A stretch of DNA of 64,000 bases, from positions 11,877 to 75,876 of the forward strand of contig JBJHBM010000005.1 in assembly GCA_050485485.1 (NCBI GenBank), given 5' to 3'. Position numbers and translations under genes: made by a program. Source of the stretch: Alphaproteobacteria bacterium. Its GTDB lineage: Bacteria > Pseudomonadota > Alphaproteobacteria > SMXQ01. Shown one piece after another: positions 33,922 to 33,999 of the stretch. How positions within the stretch are numbered: position 1 is the stretch's first letter; each line of letters starts with the position of its first letter. The notes below the pieces were generated by a model. That model was not told the origin of the DNA, did not search any database, and was given only the letters and a program-made list of their open reading frames with translations.

Positions 33922-33999
33922 CAGTGACCAGACTGTGACCGGGCGGCCCCGTCGTACCGCGGGCGCGGCAGGGTGATACCGGTCACAGTCTGGTCACTG
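33922..33999. repeat. perfect 21-bp inverted repeat CAGTGACCAGACTGTGACCGG / CCGGTCACAGTCTGGTCACTG with 36-bp spacer, in the divergent promoter region
   Basis: Arms at 33922-33942 and 33979-33999, read directly from sequence. Lies between the flippase start (33853) and the QueC-like start (34073). Confidence 0.85.

Follow-up and report, generated by a model that had tools for sequence, protein, structure and literature searches.

A perfect 21-bp inverted repeat, lying between the divergently transcribed genes for a polysaccharide flippase and a 415 amino acid protein in an alphaproteobacterial genome, probably represents two back-to-back copies of a conserved, predicted regulator-binding box, one serving each of the divergent operons. 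Two directional boxes in this arrangement are necessarily read as an inverted repeat. From comparison of the sequences, the two copies are best read as separate sites for a response regulator of the OmpR/PhoB type, which would co-regulate the flippase operon and the operon specifying the 415 amino acid PP-loop-type protein and an ATP-grasp protein. The first-pass annotation of this region had proposed an operator coordinating both operons; a predicted regulator-binding element coupling the two is still the most likely function, but the inverted repeat is not itself the unit of recognition, since lone arms are found at five loci.

The inverted repeat and its flanking genes

The window, that is the whole stretch of 64,000 nucleotides which was analysed, carries the repeat in the 219-bp gap separating the flippase gene (ATG at 33853, minus strand) from the gene of the 415 amino acid protein (ATG at 34073, plus strand). 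The two arms, CAGTGACCAGACTGTGACCGG and CCGGTCACAGTCTGGTCACTG, are each 21 nt in length, are 100% complementary and are separated by 36 nt (Table 1), in agreement with the first-pass annotation, and the repeat as a whole measures 78 bp. It extends from 69 to 146 bp from one gene start and from 74 to 151 bp from the other, close to the 70–145 bp originally given for both. With up to three mismatches allowed, the two arms are the sole occurrences of the 21-mer in 64 kb, and none are expected on the basis of 100 shuffles, which bears out the earlier statement that the repeat lies far beyond chance. Each arm contains two copies of the motif GTGACC at a distance of 11 bp, and this internal direct repeat, which had also been recognized at the outset, is the important feature of the element. 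An independent Logan assembly (L003) is identical across the repeat region and has it in the same orientation.

Table 1. Coordinates of the repeat, the boxes and the neighbouring genes, numbered from the first nucleotide of the window.
Feature	Position	Strand	Remarks
MOP/Wzx-type polysaccharide flippase gene (507 aa), leftward target	32330..33853	-	Pfam Polysacc_synt_3, E 3.6e-76; NCBIfam MOP flippase; gene call in L003
Left box TCACAGT-CTGG-TCACTGT, facing the flippase gene	33921..33938	-	23.6 bits; PhoP consensus 11/14; the left-box orthologue in L004 faces its flippase gene
Left arm of perfect inverted repeat, CAGTGACCAGACTGTGACCGG	33922..33942	.	
36-nt spacer between the boxes	33943..33978	.	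Length and sequence both unconserved in other genomes
Right arm of perfect inverted repeat, CCGGTCACAGTCTGGTCACTG	33979..33999	.	
Right box TCACAGT-CTGG-TCACTGG, facing the 415-aa protein gene	33983..34000	+	27.4 bits; PhoP consensus 11/14
Candidate -10-like element TTACGC, rightward promoter	34020..34025	+	Placed from the A/T peak
415-aa protein gene, SGGVDS PP-loop-type motif, rightward target	34073..35320	+	Without Pfam or NCBIfam family
Sugar-transfer-associated ATP-grasp gene	35323..36525	+	Pfam ATPgrasp_ST

The 415 amino acid protein carries a FSGGVDSWY motif of the PP-loop type and has no sequence match in Pfam, NCBIfam or PDB. Its AlphaFold model (pLDDT 90.8) was used in a fold search, which matched PP-loop enzymes weakly (best E-value 0.011), namely carbapenam/asparagine synthetase, MnmA and TtuA. 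Given so weak a resemblance, the name "QueC-like" which the gene had first received is only loosely right. At least 287 homologues make up the family to which the protein belongs; SGGVDS and CxxCxKC-type motifs are invariant in it, and an ATPgrasp_ST gene usually comes next downstream. The named homologues point to a Rhodospirillales-like alphaproteobacterium, the best named match being that of Shumkonia mesophila (59%; genome GCA_026163695.1). In the window the ATP-grasp gene is probably co-transcribed with that of the 415 amino acid protein, and the pair is also present in three of the related loci (L004, L060 and L061).

Two other regions of the window may be mentioned. An arsenic-resistance-like operon, specifying an ArsR-type HTH protein, an ArsC-like low-molecular-weight phosphatase and a MIP channel, is located at 27908–29534 and is unrelated to the repeat. 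A further pair of envelope/polysaccharide type is found at 3923–6330, where a gene of the NAD-dependent epimerase/GDP-mannose-dehydratase family is accompanied by one for a BBP2_2 beta-barrel porin, and no box is present there.

A directional box in single and paired arrangement

Each arm of the repeat constitutes one directional box of the form TCACAGT-CTGG-TCACTGG, in which two 7-bp direct repeats are separated by a 4-bp spacer. The consensus, which covers 18–22 bp, is G[TC]CACAG-nTT-G[GA]TCAC-TGG (also written G-TCACAG-nTTG-G-TCAC-TGG) and has an 11-bp period. All 19 sites could be aligned without gaps in one register, the 4-bp spacer being constant throughout. Conservation is concentrated on the two TCAC(A/T)G units and not on the linker, and the TCAC columns are invariant or nearly so among 14–19 sites. 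A matrix was constructed from the sites outside the window, and against it both window arms (scores in Table 1) lie well above the best of 40 shuffled windows, which reached 16.7 bits.

The comparison set consisted of fetched loci encoding relatives of the 415 amino acid protein. A box is found upstream of the orthologous gene in at least ten other alphaproteobacterial lineages, with protein identities of 44–61%. The loci concerned are L004, L008 (S. mesophila), L056, L057, L059, L009/L010, L012/L013, L011, L014 and L061, and the box is weak in L060. In every case it is orientated towards the downstream gene, and it starts 73–166 bp before the start codon. The same divergent layout of flippase and orthologue recurs in L004 (61% identity), where the intergenic gap is 218 bp and contains an imperfect repeat, CCAGTGATCAACGTGTGA / TCACAGCCTGGTCACTGG, with arms 12 nt apart as measured from TGTGA to TCACA. 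The box is absent from L062 and from the approximately 30% identical homologues on Azospirillum and Gemmobacter plasmids.

A single box is found with an upstream neighbour that is either a tRNA gene or runs in the same direction. The gene for tRNA-Arg takes this place in L008; in L059 it is what looks like the 3' end of a tRNA, at the edge of the contig; L057 and L011 have co-directional genes. No second box could be found in these four loci or in L056, even at 4 bits, and four of the five single-box loci have no divergent neighbour. Back-to-back pairs, on the other hand, occur together with a divergent gene, in ten intergenic regions. The divergent partner is a flippase gene in the window and in L004, a gene for a PqqD/HprK-related kinase A in L009, L012 and L060, and gmd in L014 and L061. 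In L009, L012 and L060 there is, in addition, a second pair of boxes between a gmd or epimerase gene and a gene for a small protein, which points to a regulon.

Several further features of these loci were observed. The second pairs are situated at 840–960 in L009, 800–905 in L012 and 2030–2115 in L060, and the small genes next to them specify 78–103 amino acids. The product of the small gene in L009 has a twin-arginine-like N-terminus (RREFL) and a tail rich in His, Arg and Gly; it may be a precursor or a secreted peptide. The region 1421–3894 of L009, like 2521–4823 of L060, specifies a fusion of a PqqD-like domain with HprK-related kinase A and, after it, an NTP_transf_5 nucleotidyltransferase. 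In several relatives this uncharacterised cassette takes the place of the window's flippase gene opposite the 415-aa orthologue. In S. mesophila and a relative, the region upstream of the orthologue contains genes for tRNA-Pro and tRNA-Arg (L008, 7769–7845; L057, 3014–3090). A distance of 30 nt separates the end of the tRNA-Arg gene from the single box in L008, a locus that lacks both the flippase and the ATP-grasp gene; in L057 co-directional genes are interposed between the tRNA genes and the box.

In 20 sites the only A/T-rich hexamer downstream of the box is found at a fixed offset of 41–47 from the first base of the 24-nt site window. The A/T content at this offset is 0.50–0.85 against a background of about 0.33, and none of 2000 circular-shift controls (0/2000) reached the peak. 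The dinucleotide TA is present at offset 40–43 in 12 of the 20 sites, and at offset 48 on the flippase side. The -10 assignments that can be proposed from these sequences are weak, that on the flippase side especially. If the A/T-rich element is read as a -10, the box would be positioned at about -50 to -33. A promoter and terminator scan revealed no terminator and no sigma-70 consensus promoter in the region, the latter as expected of an activator-dependent promoter. The classical pho box of E. coli lies about one helical turn closer to the -10 than does the box described here to its putative -10; this additional turn makes the mode of activation uncertain, with repression as the less likely alternative.

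The exact identity of the window arms is more than the motif alone would lead one to expect. The probability that two independent draws from the motif would agree at 21 of 21 positions is approximately 5e-5, and no pair of sites from other genomes is above 20/21 identical. Within 33922–33999 the arms are identical also at motif-free positions. Identity of this degree is too rare for independent draws, so that something further acts in the window lineage; candidates are gene conversion between the two nearby inverted copies, an optimum peculiar to the lineage, or a further role in structure or inversion. As judged from the two arms themselves, concerted evolution of both boxes in this lineage is suggested.

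Other explanations of the repeat

The whole repeat might be taken for a palindromic operator, in which a dimer or tetramer contacts both arms, or loops the spacer, and thereby controls both operons; a regulator of this kind had been proposed in the first-pass annotation. Its perfect symmetry, its location midway between the divergent starts and the closeness of the arms in L004 would all suit such an operator. Against this, a lone arm serves the same gene in five loci, and each arm is internally a direct repeat and not a half-palindrome. The gaps between paired boxes are 4, 12, 19, 36, 41, 47, 61, 65, 74 and 87 nt, with no helical phasing, and the two arms within other genomes are alike at 11–16 of 19 positions, the mismatches being at unconstrained motif positions and not compensatory. 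A dimer or tetramer bridging the arms is therefore unlikely, in view of the variable, unphased gap and the imperfect arms elsewhere, and we consider a palindromic operator improbable.

It is likewise improbable that the box is a transcribed leader element, read in non-template DNA or in RNA by an antitermination or processivity factor in the manner of ops/JUMPstart. The likeness to JUMPstart/ops is that of a short directional element recurring just upstream of polysaccharide-gene starts: the box is directional, stands 73–166 bp upstream of many polysaccharide-type starts and is found at several operons per genome. The ops element, however, is itself transcribed, and its sequence, GGCGGTAG, does not occur in the intergenic region, whereas the element described here is apparently upstream of the -10 of its promoter, an A/T-rich -10-like element being found at a fixed distance downstream of it. 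In L004 and L060, moreover, the paired boxes are only 4–12 nt apart, so that a promoter upstream of one box would fall inside the other. An Rfam search of the repeat region returned miRNA-hairpin noise only and no family, and no NusG-like gene was found among the window ORFs scanned.

The fixed distance to a downstream A/T-containing element would also be expected if the box were the promoter element of an alternative, ECF-type, sigma factor, and the sequence TGTCACA resembles the -35 of some ECF promoters. An ECF-type sigma gene is indeed present in one of the clusters (L061, MAG GCA_033344895.1), where it lies at 10569–11111 and, with a 303-aa gene after it, closes the orthologous cluster; the box is absent upstream of this sigma gene. 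The conserved units are 11 bp apart, not 16–17 bp, and a -35/-10 pair would not be spaced as widely as the proximal TCAC and the A/T element, which are separated by about 23 nt. The downstream element is furthermore variable (TAAGG, TTAGG, TAGCG, TCAAT, TACATT), unlike an ECF -10. An ECF promoter is accordingly a quite improbable explanation.

A structural role, as an RNA hairpin in the 5' leader or as a DNA cruciform, had been put forward in the first-pass annotation, and within the window the stability of the repeat is exceptional. RNA folding of the repeat strand gave -76.9 kcal/mol with a z-score of -5.7 (-5.3 for the other strand), and the DNA fold has a z-score of -6.9; the perfect identity of the arms, unexpected from the motif, would be accounted for as well. 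At orthologous loci the corresponding DNA values are -2.8, +0.46, -1.1 and -0.39. This lack of conserved stability argues against a hairpin or cruciform as the conserved function, as do the non-compensatory nature of the arm differences, the existence of single-arm loci and the lack of an Rfam family. A loop of 36 nt disfavours cruciform extrusion. Structure is thus a very unlikely basis for the element.

Perfect inverted repeats in the promoter region of polysaccharide genes are a hallmark of invertons. In the present case a recombinase would flip the 36-bp segment and so bring about phase variation of the surface-polysaccharide operons, which would again account for the otherwise unexplained arm identity. 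No recombinase gene is present within about 10 kb of the repeat, however, the spacer is too short for a promoter, a single orientation is seen in two assemblies (the window and L003), and in other genomes the arms are imperfect and sometimes single, so that inversion is highly unlikely.

Finally, although 21-bp terminal inverted repeats and a total length of 78 bp would fit a miniature inverted-repeat or REP-type mobile element, this further suggestion of the first-pass annotation is hardly credible: no other copy exists in the 64-kb window, a scan for exact 19-mers in 185,579 genomes, one per species, revealed no genome with both arms and just two lone half-sites, the flanks GCCGCTCA and GTTTCGGC contain no direct repeat and hence no target-site duplication, and in distant genomes the arms are found at the orthologous place but enclose unrelated spacers. 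One of the half-sites is in a MAG of Bacteroidales and the other in one of Actinomycetes; both lack the partner arm, and two matches in such a collection are close to a back-of-envelope estimate of chance. BLASTN of the repeat against plasmids gave GC-rich spacer noise only. In an uncultured Actinomycetes MAG (L002, 5084–5107, minus strand) the 22-nt sequence CTGGTCACAGTCTGGTCACTGG corresponds to the window box bar one flanking base and is located some 65 nt downstream of tRNA-Leu; this may be a chance occurrence or a genuine PhoP-type box in an actinobacterium.

Known regulator boxes and the predicted regulon

With each arm read as a separate regulator-binding site, the box can be compared with those of known regulators. 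Two 7-bp direct repeats with a 4-bp spacer are likewise found in the site of Mycobacterium tuberculosis PhoP, a member of the OmpR/PhoB family; this site, TCACAGC-N4-TCACAGC, is bound by a tandem dimer and the 4-bp spacer is strictly required (PMC4832192). While the window arms match the PhoP consensus as given in Table 1, all 19 sites match it at 9–12 of 14 positions, in one register and on the gene-directed strand; only 0.04% of random 24-mers match at 11 positions or more. Natural PhoP sites are similarly imperfect, and the contact residues in the recognition helix of PhoP are Asn212, Val213, Glu215, Ser216, Tyr217 and Tyr220 (PMC4832192). The differences are that the consensus is actinobacterial, whereas the host is an alphaproteobacterium without an identified PhoP orthologue, that the proximal unit is TCAC(T/G)(G/C)(G/C) and not TCACAGC, and that the nTTG linker and the TGG tail are also conserved here.

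The PHO box of PhoB, in E. coli and rhizobia, has the sequence CTGTCAT-N4-CTGTCAT with an A/T-rich N4; a response-regulator dimer occupies it in tandem close to the -35, and in Sinorhizobium PhoB activates exopolysaccharide genes (PMC4415409, PMC3131613). In its generic form it consists of two 11-nt units (PMC4415409), and the layout of two 11-nt direct-repeat units is the same as that found here. The units match at 5/7 and 5/7 positions, however, the key T of TGTCA being G or A, the spacer is CTGG, TTGG or TTGA and not A/T-rich, and the box is about 10 bp further from the putative -10. With neither the CTGTCAT units nor the A/T-rich spacer present, the sequence does not conform to a PhoB PHO box. 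No pst or pho genes were found in the window or in the fetched loci.

The CenR box of Rhodobacter sphaeroides, TGA-N8-TGA, belongs to an OmpR-family regulator of envelope genes and is located directly upstream of the -35, co-directionally (PMC9275681). It shares with the present box a tandem repeat, an 11-bp period and an alphaproteobacterial host. Scored against a matrix of 31 published CenR sites, our sites reached 8–14 bits, compared with a random 99th percentile of 6.2, and the four Shumkonia-type single-box sites (L008, L057, L056 and L059) scored low, at 0.4–4.9 bits. The best match is, in contrast to CenR, on the strand opposite to that of the gene, and many more positions are conserved. 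Read co-directionally, the box becomes TCA-N8-TCA, a minority variant among the published CenR sites.

A ChvI box was rejected as neither TTGC-N3-GCAA (Caulobacter) nor GCC-N8-GCC (S. meliloti) occurs within the box. The motifs for sigma-54 (-24/-12), RpoH, ECF41 (TGTCACA-N16-CGTC), FixK/Fnr, IHF, the DnaA box, the alphaproteobacterial LexA box (GTTC-N7-GTTC) and CcrM GANTC sites were also rejected on sequence. Searches of the literature for the box motif and for the HprK-related-kinase/ATPgrasp_ST system found nothing.

We propose that each box is occupied by a head-to-tail dimer of a trans-encoded regulator, adjoining the -35 or just upstream of it. The regulator is probably a response regulator of the OmpR/PhoB family whose preference for DNA resembles that of M. 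tuberculosis PhoP. Each box would face one of two promoters, that of the flippase operon to the left or that of the PP-loop/ATP-grasp operon to the right, and the two operons would belong to a larger regulon of genes for cell-surface glycans and peptide modification. Where the box lies, and how weak the core promoter is, make activation more likely than repression.

No Response_reg or Trans_reg_C gene was detected by Pfam among the window ORFs scanned, which were most of those in the window, and Pfam and TBLASTN revealed no gene for an OmpR-family regulator, either in the window or at the loci which have the box. With PhoB and PhoP as queries, TBLASTN over all loci located an OmpR-type gene only in L020, which has no box.

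A more far-reaching proposal, which we offer tentatively, is that a response regulator with PhoP-like specificity runs an undescribed regulon across Rhodospirillales-like alphaproteobacteria, the two boxes of the window being kept identical by gene conversion or a structural role. As part of the same tentative reading, its members would include the unclassified PP-loop family, the sugar-transfer ATP-grasp, the PqqD/HprK-related kinase A, the nucleotidyltransferase, gmd, the flippase and the small secreted protein.

A striking sequence feature would in this way be explained as ordinary promoter architecture. Where perfect inverted repeats are met with in divergent promoters, it is worth checking for the occurrence of single arms in relatives before an operator, a hairpin or a mobile element is invoked. 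The analysis yields a usable motif and a first sketch of a regulon for uncharacterised surface-modification genes in poorly studied alphaproteobacteria, and since S. mesophila carries the box and is in culture, the predicted regulator could be found there.
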